Source: Methanobacteriaceae archaeon (GTDB lineage Archaea > Methanobacteriota > Methanobacteria > Methanobacteriales > Methanobacteriaceae). Taken from it: a stretch of DNA of 27,868 nt. Under the pieces are notes generated by a model, which was given only the letters and a program-made list of their open reading frames with translations, was not told where the DNA came from and did no database searches. Of the stretch, positions 3,266 to 27,526 are shown piece after piece; position 1 is the first letter of the stretch; each line of letters opens with the position of its first letter. The DNA is taken from contig PWMT01000152.1 of assembly GCA_003558085.1 (NCBI GenBank), forward strand, positions 1 to 27,868. The letters run 5' to 3'. The translations under genes were made by a program, and so were the position numbers.

Positions 3266-4228
3266 TTAACTACATTCTTTTCTTTCCCTGATTAATTTAA
3301 TTAATTCTCCTGGGGCTTCCATTTCTTCAATTTCCCAATTGTTTACCACGGGGATTCCATCTAAAGATTCAAAAGTTTTTTTACGATCCATGATGAAGAC
3401 AGAATCTGAACCAGTTACAATTGAGAGATCTTTTAAATTCACTGCCATTTTATTTAAAGTTTTCTGGTTTCGCTTCTTATCTAGATTAGTTATCAAAGGA
3501 TTATTAGAAATATTGGCCTTTTTAATAGTGGTTAATGCATCAAAGGGTGTTTTTTGTGTGGGTATAACTCCAAAACCTAAATTTAACAATAATTTAGCTT
3601 CAGAATCTTTTCCTTTTTCCAGGGAATCAGTATTAAATTCTTGCTCAGGAACCTTGAATAAGTCAATAGAAATGGTAATTTTAAGGTCTAAAATATCTTG
3701 CAAAATCATTGCAGTTTCAGGACAAGCTCTGACTAATCCATGTTCATATTTATAAATAGTTTCTCGGGATACATGGGCTAAATCAGCTAAGTCTTTTAAA
3801 GAAAGATTATATTCTTGACGAAGATCTTTTAAGGCTTCTCCATTTATTTGAACGTAATATCCGCCTCTATCTGCAAACACTTCCGGATAATAACCTTCAA
3901 TGATCATGTTTTTTAAGGTTTCTAGAGCAATAACTGGAATACCATGGCGTTCGTAAACCACGTCTTCTTCCAAATATTCTGTTTTAGATTTAAGTCCCAC
4001 TATAAGGGGGGATCCTAAAAAAGTACGGGAAACTTTTTTGATAGAATCAGCCTGTAAACCATTGATACTGTCAATATTAATTAAAACCTTTAATAATAGA
4101 AGCAATAACTTCTTTCTAGCAACCATATCAAAACAGCTTCGATCATAAATATCTGATGTTTCAAATCCATGGTTGGCTAAAAGATTATTAATTTCTTGAA
4201 GGACATGAGCCCTTTCAGTATTAATCAT
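3266..4228 (-). CDS. Archaeal XRE/Cro-type HTH transcriptional regulator (COG1395-like)
   Basis: HTH segment LRQEYNLSLKDLADLAHVSRETIYKYEHG, plus family motifs CFDMVAR, VVYERHGIP and RGGYYV. Start reassigned to the ATG at 4228 (MINTERAH) because GGTGA precedes it and the longer ORF overlaps tiaS. Confidence 0.85.
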   Translation of the reverse strand: MINTERAHVLQEINNLLANHGFETSDIYDRSCFDMVARKKLLLLLLKVLINIDSINGLQADSIKKVSRTFLGSPLIVGLKSKTEYLEEDVVYERHGIPVIALETLKNMIIEGYYPEVFADRGGYYVQINGEALKDLRQEYNLSLKDLADLAHVSRETIYKYEHGLVRACPETAMILQDILDLKITISIDLFKVPEQEFNTDSLEKGKDSEAKLLLNLGFGVIPTQKTPFDALTTIKKANISNNPLITNLDKKRNQKTLNKMAVNLKDLSIVTGSDSVFIMDRKKTFESLDGIPVVNNWEIEEMEAPGELIKLIRERKECS

Positions 4229-4250
4229 ATCATCACCGGTGGTAAGTAAT

Positions 4251-5516
4251 ATGTATGAACTACATGTAGGTATAGATGACACAGATTCCCCAGAGGGAAT
4301 GTGCACTACTTATATTACATGTGTAATTATTGAGCAACTTAAATATTATGGTTACCATGTATCAAGTTATCCTCGACTAATACGTCTCAATCCATTTGCT
4401 AAGTTTAAAACCCGAGGTAATGGGGCTACTTCTTTTATGCTTAGATTAAATTCTATCTCTCAAATAGGAGAGGTGAAAAATATTATTTTAAATAAAGTGG
4501 AAGATTTATCTTGCTTAGAAAATGAGAATACTAATCCAGGAGTTGTTTTTCTTAGAGGGCCGATTACAGATGAATTAGAATCATTTGCTATTAATACAAT
4601 TAGGAACATAATGAGTATTGAAGATGCCAAAACGATGATTCAAAAACTAAATGCAGAATACTATATTTTTAAAAATGGTAGGGGGATCATTGGAGCCTTA
4701 GCTGCTATTGGGTGCCCCTTAGAGGATTATACATTTGAATTGCTTTCCTATCGTTTACCTGAAAATTATGGTAAAAAGAGAAATATAAACCATCAATCAG
4801 TCATTTCAATGGATGAGAAAACTTATCCGCAGACTTTTGATAATTTAGACGGTAAATATATGGCTATAGCACCTAAAACTCCTTGTCCTATTCTATATGG
4901 TATTCGTGGTGAAACTCCGGATGCTGTTTTAAAGGCACATTATTTAGTAGAGACTCAGGAACCTATAGAGCGCTATTGTATCTTCCAGACCAATCAACAT
5001 ACTGATATTCATCTCCAAAAAATAAATGAAATAAAAAATATGCAAAAATATGGATGTTACATTGTCTCCGGAGAAGTTAAAGATACTCCCTGGTATATTG
5101 AAGGAGGACATGTTTTTTTCAAGCTTAAGGATGATTCTGGAATAATAGAATGTGCAGCCTATGAGCCTACTAAAGAGTTTAGAAAAATAGTAAAAAAATT
5201 GCAACCAGGAGACCAGGTAGAAGTATATGGTGGAATAGGTTCCCAGGGAACATTGAATTTGGAAAAGATAAAGATAAAAAGTTTGACTCCGGTATTCTTC
5301 GAAGAAAACCCTTTATGTATCTGCGGAAAACGTATGAAATCTGCAGGAAAAGATAAAGGATTTAAATGTTCCCATTGTGGAGAAAAAATTCGAGAAAAAT
5401 CTAAGATCAGTAAAAAAATAAGAAGGAAAATAACACCCGGCTTTTATGAGGTTCCTCCTTCTGCCCGCCGCCACTTATCCAAGCCATTGATACGTTTAAA
5501 GGGAGAATCAACCTAA
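4251..5516 (+). CDS. tiaS: tRNA(Ile2) 2-agmatinylcytidine synthetase
   Basis: GIDDTD...GMCTTY, RLNP..KTRGNG, GRGIIGALAAIG, TNQHTD, OB-fold GGHVFF, zinc ribbon CICG...CSHCG, and terminal RRHLSKP. The ATG at 4251 follows a GGTGGT SD. Confidence 0.93.
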   Translation: MYELHVGIDDTDSPEGMCTTYITCVIIEQLKYYGYHVSSYPRLIRLNPFAKFKTRGNGATSFMLRLNSISQIGEVKNIILNKVEDLSCLENENTNPGVVFLRGPITDELESFAINTIRNIMSIEDAKTMIQKLNAEYYIFKNGRGIIGALAAIGCPLEDYTFELLSYRLPENYGKKRNINHQSVISMDEKTYPQTFDNLDGKYMAIAPKTPCPILYGIRGETPDAVLKAHYLVETQEPIERYCIFQTNQHTDIHLQKINEIKNMQKYGCYIVSGEVKDTPWYIEGGHVFFKLKDDSGIIECAAYEPTKEFRKIVKKLQPGDQVEVYGGIGSQGTLNLEKIKIKSLTPVFFEENPLCICGKRMKSAGKDKGFKCSHCGEKIREKSKISKKIRRKITPGFYEVPPSARRHLSKPLIRLKGEST

Positions 5517-5612: not shown

Positions 5613-7004
5613 ATGATCAGCTCAGCATTCGCCTCATTTATAGAAAATTTATACTGGGAAGAAATACCTCCTAATATCATTGAAAAAGCTAAATATTGTT
5701 TGATAGATTATTTAGGAGTAACTCTTCGAGGCTCCAGGGAAAAAAGTTCTCAAGCTGCATGCAGACTAATGAATTCTATTCAAAAGACAGATAAAGATTC
5801 AGCGGGATTAGTTACTATTTGGGGCCATGGGAAGGGGGGATTAATGGAAGCCTGTTTTCTAAACGGGATTTCCTCTCATGCTCTAGACTTAGATGATGGT
5901 CATGCTTTGGCTCAAGTTCATCCAGGATGTGCAATTATAACTTCTGCTCTGGCCTTAACCGAATATTATGATAAAACTGGCCAAGATTTATTGGAAGCTA
6001 TAATTACAGGCTATGAAGTGGAAATAGCTTTAGGTATTCTTTTTAATCCTCATCATAGAAATCAAGGTTTTCATAGTACCGGGACCCTGGGAGTCTTCGG
6101 TTCAACTGCTGCTGCAGCAAAAATTCTTGATTTAAATCAGGAACATATTATAAATGCATTGGGTTTGGCAGGATCCCAATCCTGCGGACTTTTAGAATCA
6201 GATCATGCCGGTACAATGGCTAAACATTTACATGCTGGCCATGCAGCTCAATCAGGTGTAAGATCTGCTATTATGGCTCAAAATGGATTTACAGGACCTT
6301 CAAGTATTTTTGAGGGTCGGGAAGGATTTATAAATAGTATGTGTAATTTAAATATTAATTTCAGTGAATTAGAATCGGATCTGAATTCTCTTTTAGGCCA
6401 ATTTCATATTAAAGATGTTTATTTTAAGAAGTATCCTGTTTGTCGTCATTTGCATTCTGCTATTGATTCAGCTTTACACATTTTTAATGAATTTAAAGTA
6501 AAACAGATTAATATTGATCAGATTGAAAATATCAAAGTCCATACTTATAAAATTGCGGCTGAACATGATAATCATTATCCGGAAACAGCAGCAGCTACTA
6601 GACAAAGCTTACCGGTTTCTGTAGCTATTGCATTAGCTAAAGGAGATATAAAATTAGAAGATGTAAAAGCATATGATCAACTTTCCCCAGAAATCAGAGA
6701 ATTAACTCATAAAATAATGATAGAGTTTGATGAGAACTTAGATAATTTTCAGCCATACCAAAGGCCTTCTCGAATAAAAATTGTTTATCATTCAAATATT
6801 AATAAAAAAATAGCTTTAAAACCTTTTAATATTGAAATAATCACTTTCAATCCTGCAGGAGATATTGATAATCCACTTACCCATAAAGAAATAAAGCATA
6901 AATTTCAGGTCTTAAATCCACAACATAAAGACCTAAACTGGGAGATTTTAAATGAGTTGGAGACACAGAAGATGGGATCACTAGTGAATAATTTAAATCT
7001 ATAA
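5613..7004 (+). CDS. MmgE/PrpD family protein (2-methylcitrate dehydratase / cis-aconitate decarboxylase / iminodisuccinate epimerase superfamily)
   Basis: NGISSHALDLDDGH, VHPG, GYEV, GFHSTG, KHLHAG, GFTGP..IFEG..GF and FKKYPVCRHLH are typical family motifs. Substrate cannot be determined from sequence. Confidence 0.9.
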   Translation: MISSAFASFIENLYWEEIPPNIIEKAKYCLIDYLGVTLRGSREKSSQAACRLMNSIQKTDKDSAGLVTIWGHGKGGLMEACFLNGISSHALDLDDGHALAQVHPGCAIITSALALTEYYDKTGQDLLEAIITGYEVEIALGILFNPHHRNQGFHSTGTLGVFGSTAAAAKILDLNQEHIINALGLAGSQSCGLLESDHAGTMAKHLHAGHAAQSGVRSAIMAQNGFTGPSSIFEGREGFINSMCNLNINFSELESDLNSLLGQFHIKDVYFKKYPVCRHLHSAIDSALHIFNEFKVKQINIDQIENIKVHTYKIAAEHDNHYPETAAATRQSLPVSVAIALAKGDIKLEDVKAYDQLSPEIRELTHKIMIEFDENLDNFQPYQRPSRIKIVYHSNINKKIALKPFNIEIITFNPAGDIDNPLTHKEIKHKFQVLNPQHKDLNWEILNELETQKMGSLVNNLNL

Positions 7005-7208
7005 AAAAATTTATCCAATTTAGAATGAACTAGAATAGGTTTTATCATTTAGAATTAAACTATATTTGGAGGCAATGGCATTTTAAAAAAATCGTATATA
7101 ATTAATCAGAGCTAAAAGAATAACTAAATTTTATTAAATGTATTTTAAATAAGTTTTATTAAAGAATACTTTATTTTTAAATGTATTCTAATTATAGGGG
7201 ATGAGTTA

Positions 7209-8117
7209 ATGCATAAAACTACACTCTTTCTACAAAATCTTGGAATCAATACTTCTTCTAGAAAGCATTCACTAGAATCTAAAAAGAGATTTGATGATGG
7301 TTCGCAATACCGCTTTGAAGTTCCTGGAATACAAAGACCGGAGACTTTGCAGGCTTTAATTAGTGCCATAGATGATTACGAATTGATTATACATCGGGTT
7401 ACTCAGACTAAAGGGATAATGTTACTCACTGATCATGAAATAGAAGAAATGGGGGATTTGGCCCGAGATGCTAATATAGAATTATTTTTAAGTGTGGGAC
7501 CAAGAGCCACTTATGATACTAGTGCTTCAGTTCACACTAAAGAGGGTGTACGAATTGGTTATCGTTTAAGGGGATATGAAAATCTGGTATATGCTATTGA
7601 AGATGTTAAAAGAGCAGCAAATCTGGGTATTAGGGGAATGGTTATCTATGACGAAGGTTTGCTTTGGATATTAAATCAAATGAGAGAAAAAGGAGAGATC
7701 CCTAAAAATCTTCATTTTAAAGTATCCGCCCATACCGGCCATGGAAATCCGGCTTCGGCTTTATTATTGGAGAATATAGGGGCAGATTCATTTAATCCAG
7801 TACGGGATTTACAGATCCCGATGTTGGCTAGTATAAGAGGAGCTATAGACATTGCCATAGATGTACATACTGAAAATCCTAAATCTTCAGGAGGTTTTAT
7901 TCGCCATTATGAGGTCCCAGATATTATTAGAGTAACCGCACCGGTTTATTTAAAAACTGGTGGGGCAATAGCCCAGCACCATGGATGGGATACCACCAAG
8001 AACCAGGCTAGAGAACGAGTCAGACAAGTGGCACTGGTACAGTCCATGATCAATGATTACTATCCTCAGGCTATAATTTCAAAACAGGGAAGCAAGGATC
8101 TGAATATACCTATTTAA
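7209..8117 (+). CDS. U32-peptidase-like TIM-barrel protein lacking cysteines
   Basis: 302 aa. RFDDGSQYRFEVP, GIRGMVIYDEGLL, KVSAHTGHGNP and LENIGADSFNP resemble the U32 barrel. The translation contains no Cys. Confidence 0.6.
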   Translation: MHKTTLFLQNLGINTSSRKHSLESKKRFDDGSQYRFEVPGIQRPETLQALISAIDDYELIIHRVTQTKGIMLLTDHEIEEMGDLARDANIELFLSVGPRATYDTSASVHTKEGVRIGYRLRGYENLVYAIEDVKRAANLGIRGMVIYDEGLLWILNQMREKGEIPKNLHFKVSAHTGHGNPASALLLENIGADSFNPVRDLQIPMLASIRGAIDIAIDVHTENPKSSGGFIRHYEVPDIIRVTAPVYLKTGGAIAQHHGWDTTKNQARERVRQVALVQSMINDYYPQAIISKQGSKDLNIPI

Positions 8118-8195
8118 TTATTATTCTTAATCTTTTCAAAAATATTAACTTTAATTAAGATTATCTTGTGGATATAAAAATTAGAGATTATATAA

Positions 8196-9047
8196 GTGGA
8201 AATAATGAGCATCACCTATAAAGTACAAGAAGCATTGATAGAAGCCAGTACTACATTTCGATCAGATCAAATTCAGGCTTATCAAAATGCAATAGAAAAG
8301 GAAACTAATGAAAATGCAGCTTGGGTGCTAGAAATTTTACTGGAAAATGCTTTAATCGCCCAAAATAAGAAAGTTCCTCTTTGTGATGATACAGGAATTC
8401 CCCATGTATTAGTGGAGATAGGTAATGAAGCTCCAATACCAATTCATTTTTGGGATGAGATTTCTAATGGTATTGAAAAAGGTCTTCAAAAACTTCCTGG
8501 CCGTCCCATGGCAGTTAAAGGCGGTGATATTGAACAAATTGAACAGAGTAAAGGATTGTTTAATGATCCTGGTAAAGTAATTTCTCCGGCCTTCTCAGTA
8601 GATAAAATAAGTGGTAATAAAGTAAAAATCCATATATTAATGTTGGGAGGTGGTCCAGAAATACGGGCCAAGACTTATAGGGTTTTTCATAGGAGAGATA
8701 ATAGAAAAGTATTTGAGGAAGTGCAAACATGGTTGAAATCAGAGGCTTCAATTTTAGGATGCACTCCCTGTACTCCTGCTGTTGGAATTGGTAGGACTCA
8801 TTTTGAAGCTACAAATTTAATGTTAAAGGCCATGGCCTATGGAAATTTAAATCAGCAGTCTAAATGGGAAGAAGATTTAACTAATTCCATAAATCAGTCT
8901 AATATTGGGCCACTGGGAATGGGTGGTGCGGTAACAGCATTAGGTTCATTTGTGAATATTGGACCACAAAGGGCTAGCGGGGTTAGAATTCTTTCCATGC
9001 GCCCTTGTTGTTGTGTAGAACCTAGAAGAGCCAGCATAGAATTTTAG
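8196..9047 (+). CDS. Fe-S hydro-lyase alpha subunit (class I fumarate hydratase / tartrate dehydratase alpha-like)
   Basis: PLCDDTG (cf. PxCQDTG), GGGPE (cf. GGGSE), GCTPC..AVGIG, NIGPLGMGG..TAL, C-terminal CCC...RRA. Start is either GTG 8196 or ATG 8205. Confidence 0.85.
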   Translation: MEIMSITYKVQEALIEASTTFRSDQIQAYQNAIEKETNENAAWVLEILLENALIAQNKKVPLCDDTGIPHVLVEIGNEAPIPIHFWDEISNGIEKGLQKLPGRPMAVKGGDIEQIEQSKGLFNDPGKVISPAFSVDKISGNKVKIHILMLGGGPEIRAKTYRVFHRRDNRKVFEEVQTWLKSEASILGCTPCTPAVGIGRTHFEATNLMLKAMAYGNLNQQSKWEEDLTNSINQSNIGPLGMGGAVTALGSFVNIGPQRASGVRILSMRPCCCVEPRRASIEF

Positions 9048-9159
9048 GATATTTAAAAGCTAATTTCTGATCATAATTTAATTAATGGCTAAAATAACTT
9101 TAAAAGGGTAGTTTATACTTAAATATCATTATCTTTCTATTTTTTAGGGGGGTATATAA

Positions 9160-9978
9160 ATGGCGATAGGAAAAGAGTCATTAAAAAATCTATTCACGGT
9201 GGGTAAGCCTAAATGGAGAACTGCTATTACTAGAGTAGAACCAAACAACATTATAACTAGAGGACATTCCCAAGAAGATCTTATTGGCAATATTTCTTTT
9301 TCTGAAATGGTTTATCTTTTAATTAAAGGAGAAATGCCTTTAAAAAAGGAATCTAAAATGTTAAGCGCAATTCTTGTTTCATTTTGTGATCATGGAGTTA
9401 CTCCGCCGAGTACACAAGCTGCCAGACTCATGGCTTCTGCTGGATCCAAAGTACATGCTTGTATTGCCGGAGGACTTTTAGCTTTTGGTAAGAATCATGC
9501 AGGTGCCATAGAAGAGTCTATGAAGGCCTTGCAAAACTATATTCAAAATTCAGGTCCTGAATATGACTGGGAATCTTTGGCCCAGAACTTTGTTAATGAA
9601 TATATAAAAGAAGATGTTAAAATCCCTGGCTTCGGGCATCGTTATCATTATGAAGATCCTCGTGCCATTAAAATTATTAAATTAGCACAAGAATACGATT
9701 GTATAGGTAAACATACTCAGTTAGCACTGGCTATACAAGAGGTAATCTTTGAATCTAAAGGGATAAAAATGAACATCGATGGCGCAAATTCAGGAATTCT
9801 ATCTGATTTAGGATTTGATTGGAGAACAGGAACAGGTATTTTTATGATAGGACGGTTACCGGGTTTAATTTCCCATGTATATGAGGAAAAAGTCCGAGAA
9901 CCTGAATTTAGGAAATTTTTCGATGTGGAAGAAATTTATTATGATGGTCAGGAGGATAGACAGCTAGGAGGTTTATAA
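9160..9978 (+). CDS. Citryl-CoA lyase / short citrate synthase-like protein
   Basis: Citrate-synthase-fold catalytic motifs DHGVTPPS, HAGA, IPGFGHR..DPR and NIDG. At 272 aa it is the short CCL-type form. A GGGGGT SD lies upstream. Confidence 0.88.
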   Translation: MAIGKESLKNLFTVGKPKWRTAITRVEPNNIITRGHSQEDLIGNISFSEMVYLLIKGEMPLKKESKMLSAILVSFCDHGVTPPSTQAARLMASAGSKVHACIAGGLLAFGKNHAGAIEESMKALQNYIQNSGPEYDWESLAQNFVNEYIKEDVKIPGFGHRYHYEDPRAIKIIKLAQEYDCIGKHTQLALAIQEVIFESKGIKMNIDGANSGILSDLGFDWRTGTGIFMIGRLPGLISHVYEEKVREPEFRKFFDVEEIYYDGQEDRQLGGL

Positions 9979-20923: not shown

Positions 20924-22045
20924 TCAACACTTTCTCCATTTCTCTTTTAACTGTTTAGAAGTTATATTAACTTTATATTGGACTTCAGCTAAATCTTTGG
21001 CTGCGTGAATCACAGTTGCTATTGGCTCTCCTTTTTCTATAATGGTATTGGTTAAAGGTACATCGTGCACGCCAGGGTTATTTAAGTTTCCTACTTTAGT
21101 TTTATATGGGGCATAGAGAATTTTTTTTAAGGTATACTTATTAGGCTTAGGGCAATTAATTAATTCTCCTTGACAGGCTTTAACATGAGCCTCTATCATA
21201 TTTATTCCTAAAGAAGATTCTGAACATTCAAAGGTACCTTGAATACGGGGATTTACTTCTATTATGTAAATATCATTGTCCTTTATTATCATATCTACTC
21301 CATTGGAACCGATAAGTGATAGTTCTTTCACTACTTCCTGGGCAACAGAATTGAATTTAACATCTATCCCGGGATAAGGAGCAACATTACCGGCGTATAT
21401 GAAACTATTTTTTGAAGCATAATCTTCAACATATAATTGTCTACTACTTATAATGGCCTTGCTTTCTTTAATAGTTGATAATACCGATGTTGAAACATTT
21501 TCTCCAGGGATGAATTCTTGTAAAATAAAATTTTCATCGTCAAGTTCCCTTTTCCTCTTATTTAATTTTTCGATACCATAACCTCCTGATCCGAAGATCG
21601 GTTTTATGATAAATTCTTTTTCAGGAAATTGTAATCTTATTTCCTGGATTTCTTCTAGACTTGGTGATAAGTAGGTAAGAGGTAAAAGGAATTTCTTCTT
21701 TAATTTTTTATACAATTTATATTTATTTACTATATTTTCCACTCTTTTATTTCCTAATATTTTAGAGGAGGGAAAATTATCTGGTAAAACACCAGTATAG
21801 GGAATAATATGATCTACTCTATCTATATAAGATGATGCTAAATCTAATAAAACTGAGGAATGGAATGATTCTTCAAAGTTGCCACAAGAATAATCGGTCT
21901 TCTGCTTTAAGATACATTTTTTATGGTGGTAACTATTAAAATCTGAGGTGCAAAAGTAGCTGGTAGAAAATATTTCATATCCCAGTTGATAAGCAGATTG
22001 AGTCAATGGTCGAGTGTTAACTCCTACAAGCAGCATCTTTTCCAT
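20924..22045 (-). CDS. ATP-grasp domain protein (COG2232-like), substrate unknown
   Basis: IIKPIFGSGGYGI, ILQEFIPG, GSNGVDMI, IIEVNPRIQGT, KGEPIATV. Confidence 0.85.
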   Translation of the reverse strand: MEKMLLVGVNTRPLTQSAYQLGYEIFSTSYFCTSDFNSYHHKKCILKQKTDYSCGNFEESFHSSVLLDLASSYIDRVDHIIPYTGVLPDNFPSSKILGNKRVENIVNKYKLYKKLKKKFLLPLTYLSPSLEEIQEIRLQFPEKEFIIKPIFGSGGYGIEKLNKRKRELDDENFILQEFIPGENVSTSVLSTIKESKAIISSRQLYVEDYASKNSFIYAGNVAPYPGIDVKFNSVAQEVVKELSLIGSNGVDMIIKDNDIYIIEVNPRIQGTFECSESSLGINMIEAHVKACQGELINCPKPNKYTLKKILYAPYKTKVGNLNNPGVHDVPLTNTIIEKGEPIATVIHAAKDLAEVQYKVNITSKQLKEKWRKC

Positions 22046-22658: not shown

Positions 22659-23027
22659 TCATAATTTTTTAACTTTGAAATTTTCATCTAACCACAGGCC
22701 AATCACTGGTAAGGAGGGTATCAAATTTTTTATAACATTTATGGAGAGATTGATTTGTTTTTGGTGCAACTCATCGCTTACTGGGTTAGCTGCACAGTCG
22801 TGATGACCTACTACAAAAATCATTTGGGATCCATGATTTATGGTGGATATATTCAGTTTTTTTAATAGTTTAGTATCATATTTTTCAGAGGATAGTATTT
22901 CTACCATACCTGCTTCGGTGATCATATCCACATGATCCACAGGATACTGGGAGGTAATCCATTGGATTACGGGTAATTGTGTTCTTCCATCCATACAATT
23001 TAAACAAGTGGCAAATTTATTTTCCAT
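22659..23027 (-). CDS. Minimal beta-class carbonic anhydrase-like protein
   Basis: Zn-ligand motifs CMDGR (C-x-D-x-R) and HHDC (H-x2-C). Probable start ATG 23027 (MENKFATC) overlaps the end of purC. Confidence 0.8.
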   Translation of the reverse strand: MENKFATCLNCMDGRTQLPVIQWITSQYPVDHVDMITEAGMVEILSSEKYDTKLLKKLNISTINHGSQMIFVVGHHDCAANPVSDELHQKQINLSINVIKNLIPSLPVIGLWLDENFKVKKL

Positions 23028-24048
23028 CCAGTTCTCTCCCAATCGCAGCTATTATTTCCATAAGAGGTGATGAATCTTTAAACCATTCTCGACCAGTTAT
23101 TTCGTTGGTGCAGGCACAATAAAGTTCTGAAATCAGAGATTTTAATTTAGGGGGTAAAGGATTAGGATTAACTGAGCATATGTTTTTCCATTCAGCCCTG
23201 TTTTCATTTTTAGCCTTTTCTGTTTCCTTATGCCAATTGGTACCTCGGTAATGTATTCTAGTTATTTCTTTACTTACCGGTAAACCCTTAAAAGTGAAAC
23301 GGCATTCATCTAGAGTACCTAATACATCTACCAGCATTATTTCCCTTTGAGGAGTGAAACCAACTTCAATCTTACCATCTTCATTTACAATGCCTATTTT
23401 AGCAAATTCAGAGCTTATAGTTTCATTGGCAATCTCTAAAACTTGCTTCACTTCTTCTATTTCATCTTTACTTAATCCTGAAATTTGCTGAGCCTCATCC
23501 CAACTAATATATCTATCAGTTACTTCTAATTTAGTGGAAACATCCAGAATGGGTGTCTCCAATTTTTCATTGGGTGAGGGTAGTTTATCCAATCCTAAAT
23601 CTTCTAAATCTATTTCTTCTCTTTCTAAACGACCAAAAACACTACTTCCTTCCGGTATATAATTTCTATAGATCATTTCTAATGGTATTAGAAAATTACC
23701 TTCCAATTTTTCGTATACGGAGTAATCATACTCAGTATTTCGACGTTCTGGTTCAATTACTTTTAACAGTTTTACTTGCATTTGGTTAGATGGTTTTTTT
23801 AATTCAGATAATCTTTTCACTACTCCATCTTCAATTAGGCCTAGATAGTGGGTTTTAAATCCCATCTTCTCAAATTTTTCAAAAAAATAAGCTCCTAATA
23901 TAGATATTGCTTCGCCTTTATGAGGTATAAGATCGGGCATTTCCCCCCAATCAAAAATAGAGTATCTATCAGAGAATATGAATTTTCCTATACCTTCTTG
24001 ATCGTCTCTTGGTTTTTTTATTATTTTTAAATCTTTTACACTACCCAT
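23017..24048 (-). CDS. purC: Phosphoribosylaminoimidazole-succinocarboxamide (SAICAR) synthase, long form
   Basis: MGSVKDL, FSDRYSIFDW...IPHKG, IPLEMIYRNY..GS, STKLE..D, DGKIEVG, DVLGTLDECRF, SKE..R. The ATG at 24048 follows a GAGGAG SD. Confidence 0.93.
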   Translation of the reverse strand: MGSVKDLKIIKKPRDDQEGIGKFIFSDRYSIFDWGEMPDLIPHKGEAISILGAYFFEKFEKMGFKTHYLGLIEDGVVKRLSELKKPSNQMQVKLLKVIEPERRNTEYDYSVYEKLEGNFLIPLEMIYRNYIPEGSSVFGRLEREEIDLEDLGLDKLPSPNEKLETPILDVSTKLEVTDRYISWDEAQQISGLSKDEIEEVKQVLEIANETISSEFAKIGIVNEDGKIEVGFTPQREIMLVDVLGTLDECRFTFKGLPVSKEITRIHYRGTNWHKETEKAKNENRAEWKNICSVNPNPLPPKLKSLISELYCACTNEITGREWFKDSSPLMEIIAAIGRELDGK

Positions 24049-24124
24049 GTTCAGTCTCCTCATATTTCTGGTGAGTAGGGTGGTCTCACCTATTCTTAAT
24101 GATTAATAATGATTAGTCTTCGGG

Positions 24125-26695: not shown

Positions 26696-27526
26696 ATGAA
26701 GTCTACCACACTACAAAGGGAAATTATTCAGAAATCTGAGGAACTTAATATTTCTCTCTTGGGATTTGCACCAGTAGATAGATGGGAAAAACCATCCAGC
26801 AAACTTCCAAATCAATTTGAAGAATGGATACCTCCAGAATTTTGGCCCCAATCTATTTATCCACATTGCAAAACTGTAATTGTAATTGGATTACCAGTTC
26901 CTTTACCCATTATAGAAACTGCACCATCCATCTATTATCATGAATTATATAAAACCGTAAACATATTGCTGGATATTAGGGCCTATGAACTAGCCAATTT
27001 TATCACAGATAAAGGTTATCCTTCTATTTCTCTTCCTAGAGATGGTTATGGCGATATAGATATTCTTTTAAATAATCCTATAACATTTTTTTCTCATCGA
27101 CATGCAGCTTATCTTGCTGGTCTGGGCTCTTTTGGTCAAAATAATGTTTTATTAACTCCTGAATATGGGCCGAGAGTTCGTTTCAATTCTATCTTCACCT
27201 CAGCTGAGCTGGAACCCACTCCCCTCCAATCTAGAGATATTTGCACTAGATGTCTTAAATGTGTGGAGTCCTGTCCAGTAAAGGCAATACCTCTTTTAGA
27301 TAAGAGTAAGGAATTTTTCCCGGATTTAATTGATAAAAAAAGTTGTGCCTTATGCAGCAAGGAACTTCGAGAAGAGCATAGATCGCCCTGTGGAATCTGT
27401 ATAAAGGTTTGTCCGGTAGGCAAAGATAGAGTGAACTATAACTGGGACGATATTTTAACTAATAGGAGAGAAAAATTAAAAAAAGCTGTAGATCATGTGA
27501 GGAGTTATGGAAGTAAAATTGAATGA
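26696..27526 (+). CDS. QueG/reductive-dehalogenase-like cobamide- and 2x[4Fe-4S]-binding protein
   Basis: LLGFAPVDRW, SHRHAAYLAGLGSFGQNNVLLTPEYGPRVRF..IFT, CTRCLKCVESCP, and CALC...CGICIKVCP. Confidence 0.8.
   Translation: MKSTTLQREIIQKSEELNISLLGFAPVDRWEKPSSKLPNQFEEWIPPEFWPQSIYPHCKTVIVIGLPVPLPIIETAPSIYYHELYKTVNILLDIRAYELANFITDKGYPSISLPRDGYGDIDILLNNPITFFSHRHAAYLAGLGSFGQNNVLLTPEYGPRVRFNSIFTSAELEPTPLQSRDICTRCLKCVESCPVKAIPLLDKSKEFFPDLIDKKSCALCSKELREEHRSPCGICIKVCPVGKDRVNYNWDDILTNRREKLKKAVDHVRSYGSKIE

Follow-up and report, generated by a model that had tools for sequence, protein, structure and literature searches.

A five-gene set of second fumarase-type hydro-lyase, citryl-CoA lyase-like, PrpD-family and cysteine-free barrel proteins that Methanobacteria inherit and lose together

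The described systems that come closest to the genes considered here are the citrate cleavage of Hydrogenobacter thermophilus by citryl-CoA synthetase (CCS) and citryl-CoA lyase (CCL), the archaeal two-subunit class I Fe-S fumarate hydratase, the methylcitrate cycle encoded by prpC-prpD-acn-prpB, the branch of the MmgE/PrpD family that includes iminodisuccinate epimerase and the IRG1/cis-aconitate decarboxylases, and the TIM-barrel proteins of the U32 and CutC families. When examining a stretch of 27,868 nucleotides from a Methanobacteriaceae archaeon (contig PWMT01000152.1 of assembly GCA_003558085.1; hereinafter, the window), we found that four adjacent genes, namely, ORF1 (MmgE/PrpD family), ORF2 (TIM barrel), ORF3 or alpha2 (Fe-S hydro-lyase alpha subunit) and ORF4 (CCL homolog), form, together with a fifth gene, beta2, that lies on another contig of the same genome (Table 1), one enzyme set whose members are inherited together and lost together. 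An initial annotation, made from the letters of the window alone, had outlined four co-oriented genes, and our gene calls reproduce their exact coordinates, all on the forward strand. Its description of the group as an orphan needs correcting with regard to the Fe-S alpha subunit, for which a partner, beta2, was found that is co-distributed with the four genes. The same annotation had stated that prpB, prpE/acs, aconitase and isocitrate dehydrogenase are missing nearby and that this is not a standard methylcitrate or tricarboxylic acid (TCA) cycle operon; the latter view is supported, and family scans detected none of prpB, acs, aconitase or isocitrate dehydrogenase in the 27.9-kb window. New here are the beta2 partner, the kept gene order, the loss of all five genes in Methanosphaera and the TCA-like relatives of the set in other lineages. 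A literature search, with subscription papers and supplements outside its reach, found no paper on the cluster.

The genome search covered the phylum of the window, that is, Methanobacteria only, with other methanogen orders represented by two named control genomes. The order ORF1-ORF2-ORF3-ORF4 is kept in all 20 loci compared, which come from about 17 genera and four families, and ORF2 is present in 109 of the 121 genomes of the order Methanobacteriales, in agreement with the conservation that the initial annotation had anticipated. All 12 genomes without ORF2 belong to a single genus (g8), identified as Methanosphaera by an MfnA sequence that exactly matches named records; in the sample of the entire phylum, ORF2 was found in 138 of 151 genomes, the one extra miss being a genome that is 93% complete. 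An H2TH gene is inserted between ORF1 and ORF2 in one locus (L018), where the block otherwise stays together, and a TnpB/IS605 OrfB-type gene with a Cas12f1-like TNB domain lies between ORF3 and ORF4 in another (L011), where the order is otherwise unbroken. Strong orthologs of beta2 (at least 51% identity) were detected in 55 of 61 genomes, and six Methanosphaera genomes yielded weak matches of the canonical type only. In five Methanosphaera genomes, neither ORF1 (0/5) nor ORF4 (0/5) was found, and the alpha query retrieved the canonical copy alone, at 28-30% identity. At both loci examined in Methanosphaera, a spacer of 442 or 379 bp separates tiaS from the ahaH next to it, and the flanks are syntenic, so the four genes are gone as one block.

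It might be supposed that the five genes belong to no common pathway, so that frozen synteny holds together genes that act separately; indeed, tiaS and aha, which flank the block but are unrelated to it, are syntenic as well, in 18 of the 20 loci each. We nevertheless regard this as very improbable, because the five genes, which reside at two loci, have been lost together in one genus with the flanks in place, because the four-gene block is intact in three loci where tiaS or aha is not adjacent (L018, L023 and L024), and because other lineages, too, have clusters with members of three of these families, as described below. Loss of autotrophy as the cause of the loss in Methanosphaera was considered and ruled out: CdhC, a marker of CO dehydrogenase/acetyl-CoA synthase, is found in 30 of 61 genomes, and 25 of the 61 carry the set with no CdhC match. 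Canonical fumarase alpha and beta copies are present both in the genome of the window (G000; 1.86 Mb, 95.9% complete) and in Methanosphaera and, because Methanosphaera keeps the canonical fumarase without the set, the set is dispensable for the synthesis of 2-oxoglutarate.

The genome of the window contains two alpha (Fumerase) and two beta (Fumerase_C) genes. The canonical pair scores 339 (alpha, on contig C68) and 155 bits, compared to 185 bits for ORF3 against PF05681 and 84.7 bits for beta2, on contig C157, against PF05683 (cut-off 22.2). ORF3 is 28% identical to the canonical alpha subunit; it passes TIGR00722 (119.7 against 100.65) and fails the fumarate hydratase equivalog NF004885 (121.2 against 276), and beta2 likewise falls under the equivalog cut-offs (NF004708, 62.4 against 269; NF005310, 85.6 against 238). 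Over 17 sequences, C63 and C189 of ORF3 do not vary and C272 hardly does; these three residues we take to be the ligands of the Fe-S cluster. The two pairs differ in their signature motifs: alpha2 has PLCDDTGIPH and RPMAVKG where the canonical alpha has PLCQDTGLPI and RPNVV, and beta2 has PT(S/T)SNK, TGRDAAL and GKGAL where the canonical beta has PTTSxRMNP, TARDxAH and GKGGM. A model of the alpha2-beta2 complex scored 0.89, compared to 0.07 for the best control, with contacts that agree to at least 96% and a partner pLDDT of at least 90; the 0.89 mark is reached by 116 of 157 solved complexes and by 2 of 215 mismatched pairs. Because a two-subunit fumarase has already been solved, this result may reflect likeness only. 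Taken together with the joint presence and joint loss of the two genes and with their adjacency in other lineages, the model suggests that alpha2 pairs with beta2.

ORF4 passes the CCL subfamily models NF004866 (432.2 against 245) and NF004869 (264 against 212) and misses the equivalog NF004864 (191.6 against 261). Its best solved relative is the CCL structure 6hxp (212.9 bits, E 4.8e-62, residues 19-269), and alignment to 6hxp, 1vgm and 6abw shows that the motifs nHAGA, GFGHR..DPR, NIDGA and iGRlpG are kept at the catalytic and oxaloacetate-binding sites of citrate synthase; the conserved positions include the catalytic His/His/Asp and the oxaloacetate-binding Arg. ORF4 is the only match to PF00285 in the genome and, accordingly, its single gene of the citrate synthase family. 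With the Fe-S ligands of alpha2/beta2 and the citrate-synthase residues of ORF4 all intact, and with motifs of the active-site region of ORF1 shared with its solved relatives (see below), the enzymes are predicted to be catalytically competent. The statement of the initial annotation that each protein deviates from the textbook enzyme was, therefore, too strong for two of them: ORF4 retains the catalytic residues, and ORF3 is 52-61% identical to the alpha subunits of the cluster type found in other lineages.

The two remaining proteins are more divergent from characterized enzymes. ORF1 contains both domains of its family, MmgE_PrpD_N (PF03972, 234.3 bits) and MmgE_PrpD_C (PF19305, 84.4 bits), well over the gathering cut-offs of 32.1, and fails all the PrpD equivalogs in NCBIfam (NF006943, 64.8 against 575; TIGR02330, 56.5 against 458; NF042438, 49.2 against 950). 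By its domain scores, then, ORF1 is assigned to the MmgE/PrpD family but is no PrpD equivalog. Among solved proteins, it matches most closely iminodisuccinate epimerase (2hp3, 9e-38) and the IRG1-like protein of Bacillus (7bra, 6e-37), followed by cis-aconitate decarboxylases at about 1e-25 and true PrpD at 1e-10. The motifs hAlDlDDgH..vHP, gfHstGtlG, tmaKhlHaG and fKkYPvC, from the active-site region, are shared with the solved relatives. Over the 20 loci, ORF1 is the least conserved of the four proteins (38-58% identity).

ORF2, by contrast, is the most conserved (60-79% identity in the 20 loci), with a set of conserved residues that are mostly charged (D30, E37, D148, K171, R210, D218, R232 and K249), and yet it has no Pfam or NCBIfam match at default thresholds. 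It contains no cysteine, and no column of conserved cysteine exists among 38 sequences of the family. The AlphaFold (AF2) model built from the 38-sequence alignment is a TIM barrel (pLDDT 92.8, pTM 0.91). In VIA-align, it best resembles CutC (Z 16.0, root-mean-square deviation 2.9, 203 aligned) and the U32 protein 5d88 (Z 15.1, root-mean-square deviation 3.0, 189 aligned), with class II aldolases at about Z 15 and many other TIM barrels at Z 13-14; Foldseek recovers class II aldolases and the U32 protein Mk0906 at a TM of about 0.5. None of these fold searches gave a match clearly above generic TIM barrels, and the ORF2 profile found nothing under E 0.04 among PDB sequences. Against PF01136, ORF2 itself scores 12.8 bits, short of the cut-off of 22.4; 32 of the 38 family members reach this model at E≤1, the best at 2.4e-8, and the ESM Atlas agrees. 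ORF2 is thus confidently predicted to be a TIM barrel that branches off remotely from the U32/CutC-like barrels, and the name that the initial annotation had used, a cysteine-free U32-like barrel, is fair. The characterized U32 hydroxylases, of the UbiU/UbiV type, hold an Fe-S cluster ligated by cysteines; ORF2, having no cysteine, could not bind such a cluster.

Relatives of ORF2 are numerous (6203 at E≤1e-3 in 90% clusters, with 787 representatives at 50% clustering); those from Methanobacterium and Methanothermobacter are 70-79% identical and appear in public databases as 'peptidase' or 'U32 family peptidase'. Proteins in which ORF2 is part of a longer fusion were examined and dismissed: there are four, each a one-off, and the best, which lacks the first 44 residues of ORF2 and follows a truncated thiamine pyrophosphate enzyme, is probably a gene-call chimera. 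Distant relatives were located at two bacterial loci, both without ORF1, ORF3 and ORF4 and too few to indicate a function. In a metagenome-assembled genome of Chloroflexota, the ORF2 relative (35-45% identity) adjoins a gene of the SMP-30/gluconolactonase family, and in one of Opitutales, another relative (35-45% identity) adjoins an aldehyde dehydrogenase gene and sulfatases. These two loci are hints that the wider family may act on sugar acids or other hydroxy acids rather than on peptides.

The families of ORF4, ORF1 and ORF3 parallel prpC, prpD and acn, and PrpB is a TIM barrel to which the ORF2 model can be fitted (Z 13.4), so it is conceivable that the set is a methylcitrate-like pathway for propionyl-CoA, with ORF2 standing in for PrpB, or else that it repairs the (homo)aconitate isomers that arise in coenzyme B synthesis. 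Both versions seem quite improbable. The scores of ORF1 against the PrpD equivalogs are far under the cut-offs, the match of ORF2 to PrpB is no better than to generic TIM barrels, and no propionate-activating gene accompanies ORF1-4 in the 27.9-kb window. Repair, furthermore, is at odds with Methanocaldococcus jannaschii, which makes coenzyme B and yet has no PF03972 match and no protein that passes NF004866.

A scan of metagenomes with the alpha2 alignment identified 80 loci, of which 49 have the Methanobacterial arrangement, 30 have a different one and one is too short to classify. The 30 loci from other lineages (G+C 0.35-0.62) have the arrangement beta-alpha: in 29 of them, 27-131 bp separate the alpha gene from a beta2-type gene upstream of it, and the thirtieth is cut by the end of the contig. 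The alpha subunits are 52-61% identical to ORF3 and the beta subunits 42-57% identical to beta2, and every motif that separates alpha2/beta2 from the canonical pair is also present in these relatives, according to the alignment. A CCL-like gene was detected in seven of the 30 loci (35-43% identity) and a PrpD-like gene in five (28-36%). Eight of the 30 loci were annotated, including L114, L115, L121, L122, L131, L137 and L139. In L115 and L121, an FrdA-like flavoprotein (FAD_binding_2) and a 2Fe-2S/4Fe-4S subunit are followed by beta, alpha, an ATP-grasp_2+Citrate_bind protein, a CoA_binding+Ligase_CoA protein (these two resembling the large and small subunits of citryl-CoA synthetase) and the CCL-like protein; L121 additionally encodes a PrpD-like protein and a TRAP transporter. 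The ORF sizes in L117, L120 and L125, which carry no family annotation, match those of L115 and L121, and each of these five loci is a compact, co-oriented cluster that looks like an operon of the reductive TCA type with a 'CDDTG'-type fumarase. L114 combines the flavoprotein, Fe-S subunit, beta and alpha with a two-subunit aconitase, Iso_dh, a PrpD-like protein and a cytochrome b protein; in L139, alpha and a beta fusion are found with the flavoprotein, a cytochrome b protein, CitF and SucC. Thus, hydro-lyase beta/alpha, CCL and PrpD-like genes are grouped elsewhere with fumarate reductase and citryl-CoA synthetase genes, whereas in Methanobacteria, the synthetase and the reductase are unlinked to the set. 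The best reading of these arrangements is that the Methanobacterial set would have descended from TCA-like clusters from which the synthetase and the reductase were removed and to which a U32-like barrel was added.

Not all these contexts are of the TCA kind. In L122, the neighbors of the beta-alpha pair include an HpcH-type lyase and a CoA-transferase of family III, and L131 and L137 include transporters, amidohydrolases and an Ldh_2 dehydrogenase. The context of L122, the ability of class I fumarases to hydrate mesaconate and the greater proximity of ORF1 to IRG1/cis-aconitate decarboxylase-type proteins than to PrpD would all fit a route to branched five-carbon acids (mesaconate, citramalate, itaconate), in which ORF4 would act on thioesters of the citramalyl-CoA type, alpha2/beta2 would serve as mesaconase, and ORF1 would decarboxylate or isomerize, like cis-aconitate decarboxylase. 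We consider such a route improbable: a context like that of L122 was seen in only one of the eight annotated loci, the set of Methanobacteria has no linked CoA-transferase, and methanogens already make isoleucine via CimA and LeuCD.

Tentatively, we favor the possibility that the five-gene set is a citrate/malate-type side pathway that branches from the incomplete reductive TCA route. Under this scheme, alpha2/beta2 would interconvert fumarate and malate, or a close 2-substituted analog, and ORF4 would make or cleave a thioester of the citryl-CoA type, built from a short acyl-CoA, such as acetyl-CoA, and a 2-oxo-dicarboxylate, such as oxaloacetate. The condensing direction is the more likely for ORF4, because no citryl-CoA synthetase was found. 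ORF1 might dehydrate, isomerize or decarboxylate the resulting tricarboxylate. ORF2, which is specific to Methanobacteria within the comparison of the sets, with no counterpart in the clusters of other lineages, might be responsible for the step that sets this pathway apart, perhaps release or processing of the thioester, or a lyase or decarboxylase reaction.

Several observations weigh against this scheme. The role assigned to ORF2 is a guess, and no ORF2-like gene was detected at E≤1e-3 in any of the 30 loci from other lineages. Neither aconitase nor isocitrate dehydrogenase is linked to the set. The genome of the window shows a single Ligase_CoA (PF00549) match, and none near the cluster, so a separate CCS appears to be missing, although, in a genome that is 95.9% complete, its absence is unproven; for want of a separate CCS, a cleavage role like that in Hydrogenobacter would lack the activating enzyme. 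Classical enzymatic and labeling work on Methanobacterium reportedly detected no activity of citrate synthase and showed 2-oxoglutarate to be made reductively. Fumarate as the substrate of the alpha/beta proteins from other lineages is itself uncertain because of the non-TCA contexts in L122, L131 and L137. Finally, the neighborhood alone is weak evidence, since the unrelated flanks are also syntenic in the class.

The position of beta2 might point to methanofuran. In 29 of 30 loci, which represent three families, the gene directly upstream of beta2 is a co-oriented mfnA (L037 is the exception), and in four loci (L036, L038, L041 and L054) the two genes touch or overlap; this neighbor passes the MfnA equivalog TIGR03812 (552 against 299 bits). 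None of the four genes in the window is near any mfn gene. The methanofuran of Methanobacteriales may end in 1,3,4,6-hexanetetracarboxylate (HTCA), which is 2,3-bis(2-carboxyethyl)succinate, that is, a 2,3-disubstituted succinate; in Methanobrevibacter smithii, the methanofuran carries a hydroxylated form of HTCA. The initial annotation regarded the genes for HTCA synthesis as unassigned, and this agrees with a passage of a 2021 paper in which the enzymes that add the terminal moieties of methanofuran side chains were still to be identified (PMC8141765); a passage of a 2011 paper says likewise of the methanofuran pathway as a whole (PMC3087415). Methanofuran-a (MFR-a) is described, in a section of another paper, as bearing a terminal tetracarboxylic acid (PMC6926001), and 1,3,4,6-tetracarboxyhexane is given, in part of an earlier text, as a major solute in the Marburg strain (PMC1224877).

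Conceivably, then, the five-gene set makes HTCA, which would serve both as the tail of methanofuran-a/c and as a free anionic solute. In such a route, ORF4 would condense a five-carbon dicarboxyl-CoA, for example, glutaryl-CoA, with 2-oxoglutarate to yield a 2,3-disubstituted malyl-CoA, which alpha2/beta2 would dehydrate in a fumarase-like reaction, with ene-reduction giving HTCA; ORF1 might set the stereochemistry, like iminodisuccinate epimerase, and ORF2 might perform the remaining step, so that these two proteins would account for the steps that the TCA cycle lacks. The chemistry fits on paper, the best solved relative of ORF1 works on a tetracarboxylate, and the set was found only in Methanobacteria among the searchable genomes: M. 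jannaschii and Methanosarcina acetivorans have no PF03972 match, and NF004866 is passed by none of 14 control genomes. Nevertheless, we view HTCA synthesis as unlikely. The motifs of alpha2/beta2 are identical to those of the relatives in fumarate reductase-CCS-CCL clusters, and nothing indicates that the pocket was remodeled to admit a bulky substrate; ORF4 matches a true CCL with 213 bits and keeps all the residues; and Methanosphaera, which lacks the set, retains mfnA (5/5 genomes, above the cut-off), mfnB (4/4) and fwdA (6/6). The set is accompanied by neither a reductase nor an HTCA ligase, since the two candidates described below, an ATP-grasp protein and a nitroreductase, are both present in Methanosphaera, and the constant position next to mfnA could stem from frozen gene order, as in the case of tiaS and aha. 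The HTCA proposal, which originated with the initial annotation and is refined here, has thus gained the adjacency of beta2 to mfnA and the taxonomic distribution of the set but is set back by the unchanged active-site motifs, the retention of mfn and fwd genes in Methanosphaera and the lack of a linked reductase or ligase.

The Methanobacteria include the main methanogens of the gut and rumen as well as the model Methanothermobacter strains; the set, which every CO2-reducing genus sampled keeps and to which no function is assigned, is a gap in the current metabolic maps. If the citrate/malate branch is real, the textbook view of their partial TCA pathway, as purely reductive and free of citrate, needs to be amended, and the set would document the retention of CCL and a second fumarase once the other genes of a TCA-like cluster had gone. 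If, instead, HTCA is the product, a question of nearly forty years, the origin of the methanofuran tail, would be closed and the route to a major solute defined.

The four genes in the window are separated by spacers of 204, 78 and 112 bp, and their G+C content, 0.33-0.36, is similar to that of the surroundings; the aha operon, which encodes the A1Ao ATPase, starts 98 bp past ORF4 (Table 1). A scan for promoters and terminators with bacterial consensus sequences performed at chance level (23 promoter-like sites compared to 21.9±4.8 in shuffled sequences, and 2 terminator-like sites compared to 3.3±2.1). In four genera (g4, g11, g14 and g17; loci L009, L010, L011, L017, L019 and L020), a DUF3100 membrane protein and another membrane protein, of about 160 aa, are encoded directly upstream of ORF1 and co-oriented with it; this membrane pair could be a transporter for the substrate or the product. 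In the same genera, the gene that immediately follows ORF4 encodes a 173-aa protein of the nitroreductase family; it was rejected as an additional member of the set, being present in all six Methanosphaera genomes and in neither of two genomes of the window's own genus. The ATP-grasp gene beyond the aha operon was also rejected: it has orthologs (38-42% identity) in 4/4 Methanosphaera genomes, in the same place after the aha operon. Its product, which is assigned to no family, scores 47.8 bits against its top NCBIfam match, MfnD (cut-off 400), and is also weakly similar to MptN, PylC and a pseudomurein ATP-grasp model.

Other features of the window deserve brief mention. Upstream of ORF1 lies tiaS, and the longest ORF of the helix-turn-helix (HTH) regulator on the opposite strand begins at a GTG inside tiaS; because NF003162 covers only residues 31-345, the actual start is probably later and the overlap smaller. 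The PurC-like protein is below the equivalog cut-offs (281.9 against 546; 183.9 against 189.9), and its gene overlaps the end of the gene for a Pro_CA_2 protein. An Fe-S protein near the end of the window is weakly matched by the models for reductive dehalogenase (51 bits) and QueG (40 bits), in both cases under the cut-off.

Table 1. Coordinates of the five-gene set and of other features mentioned in the text
Feature	Sequence	Position	Strand	Description
ORF1	window	5613-7004	+	463 aa, MmgE/PrpD-family protein
ORF2	window	7209-8117	+	302 aa, Cys-free TIM barrel
ORF3 (alpha2)	window	8196-9047	+	283 aa, Fe-S hydro-lyase alpha subunit, class I fumarase type
ORF4	window	9160-9978	+	272 aa, CCL homolog, short citrate-synthase fold
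beta2 (fifth member)	G000:C157	5100-5591	-	164 aa, Fumerase_C beta, directly downstream of mfnA
HTH regulator	window	3266-4306	-	longest ORF
tiaS	window	4239-5516	+	
aha operon	window	10077 to about 18825		A1Ao ATPase
ATP-grasp gene	window	20924-22045	-	373 aa, ATP-grasp_3 protein
Pro_CA_2 gene	window	22659-23042	-	127 aa, 'putative carbonic anhydrase'
PurC-like gene	window	23017-24063	-	348 aa
Fe-S protein gene	window	26696-27526	+	276 aa
TnpB/IS605 OrfB-type gene	L011	10831-12087	+	between ORF3 and ORF4
ORF2 relative and neighbor	L060	8022-9924		Chloroflexota
ORF2 relative and neighbors	L061	8986-12013		Opitutales

Comparison with the described systems brings out what the Methanobacterial set shares with each of them and what it does not. 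Like the methylcitrate cycle, it includes families suited to condensation and dehydration and an Fe-S hydratase for rehydration; however, ORF1 is no PrpD equivalog, ORF4 is of the truncated CCL type rather than PrpC, PrpB and propionate activation are missing, and the hydratase is of the fumarase rather than the aconitase type. ORF1 finds its best solved matches, and shares motifs of the active-site region, in the branch of iminodisuccinate epimerase and IRG1/cis-aconitate decarboxylase, although the identity is modest and its genomic context suggests no nitrogen-containing substrate. With the U32 family (Mk0906, 5d88; the hydroxylases RlhA, TrhP and UbiU/UbiV) and CutC, ORF2 has in common the TIM-barrel fold and the weak PF01136 matches, but it stays below the Pfam cut-off and has no cysteine, and a protease role is without support. 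The archaeal two-subunit class I Fe-S fumarate hydratase (7xky) has the same alpha and beta Pfam domains, the three cysteines and a separate beta subunit, with a predicted interface that passes for alpha2-beta2 as well; nevertheless, alpha2/beta2 is a second pair beside the canonical one, with motifs of its own and both subunits below the equivalog cut-offs, and its clade elsewhere adjoins fumarate reductase and CCS/CCL genes. Finally, ORF4 resembles the CCL of the H. thermophilus CCS/CCL system (6hxp) in its structural match, its passing of CCL subfamily models and its catalytic motifs, and in other lineages ORF4-like genes come after CCS-like genes; it differs in that no CCS pair was found in the genome of the window and ORF4, whose direction and substrates are predictions, is short of the equivalog NF004864.

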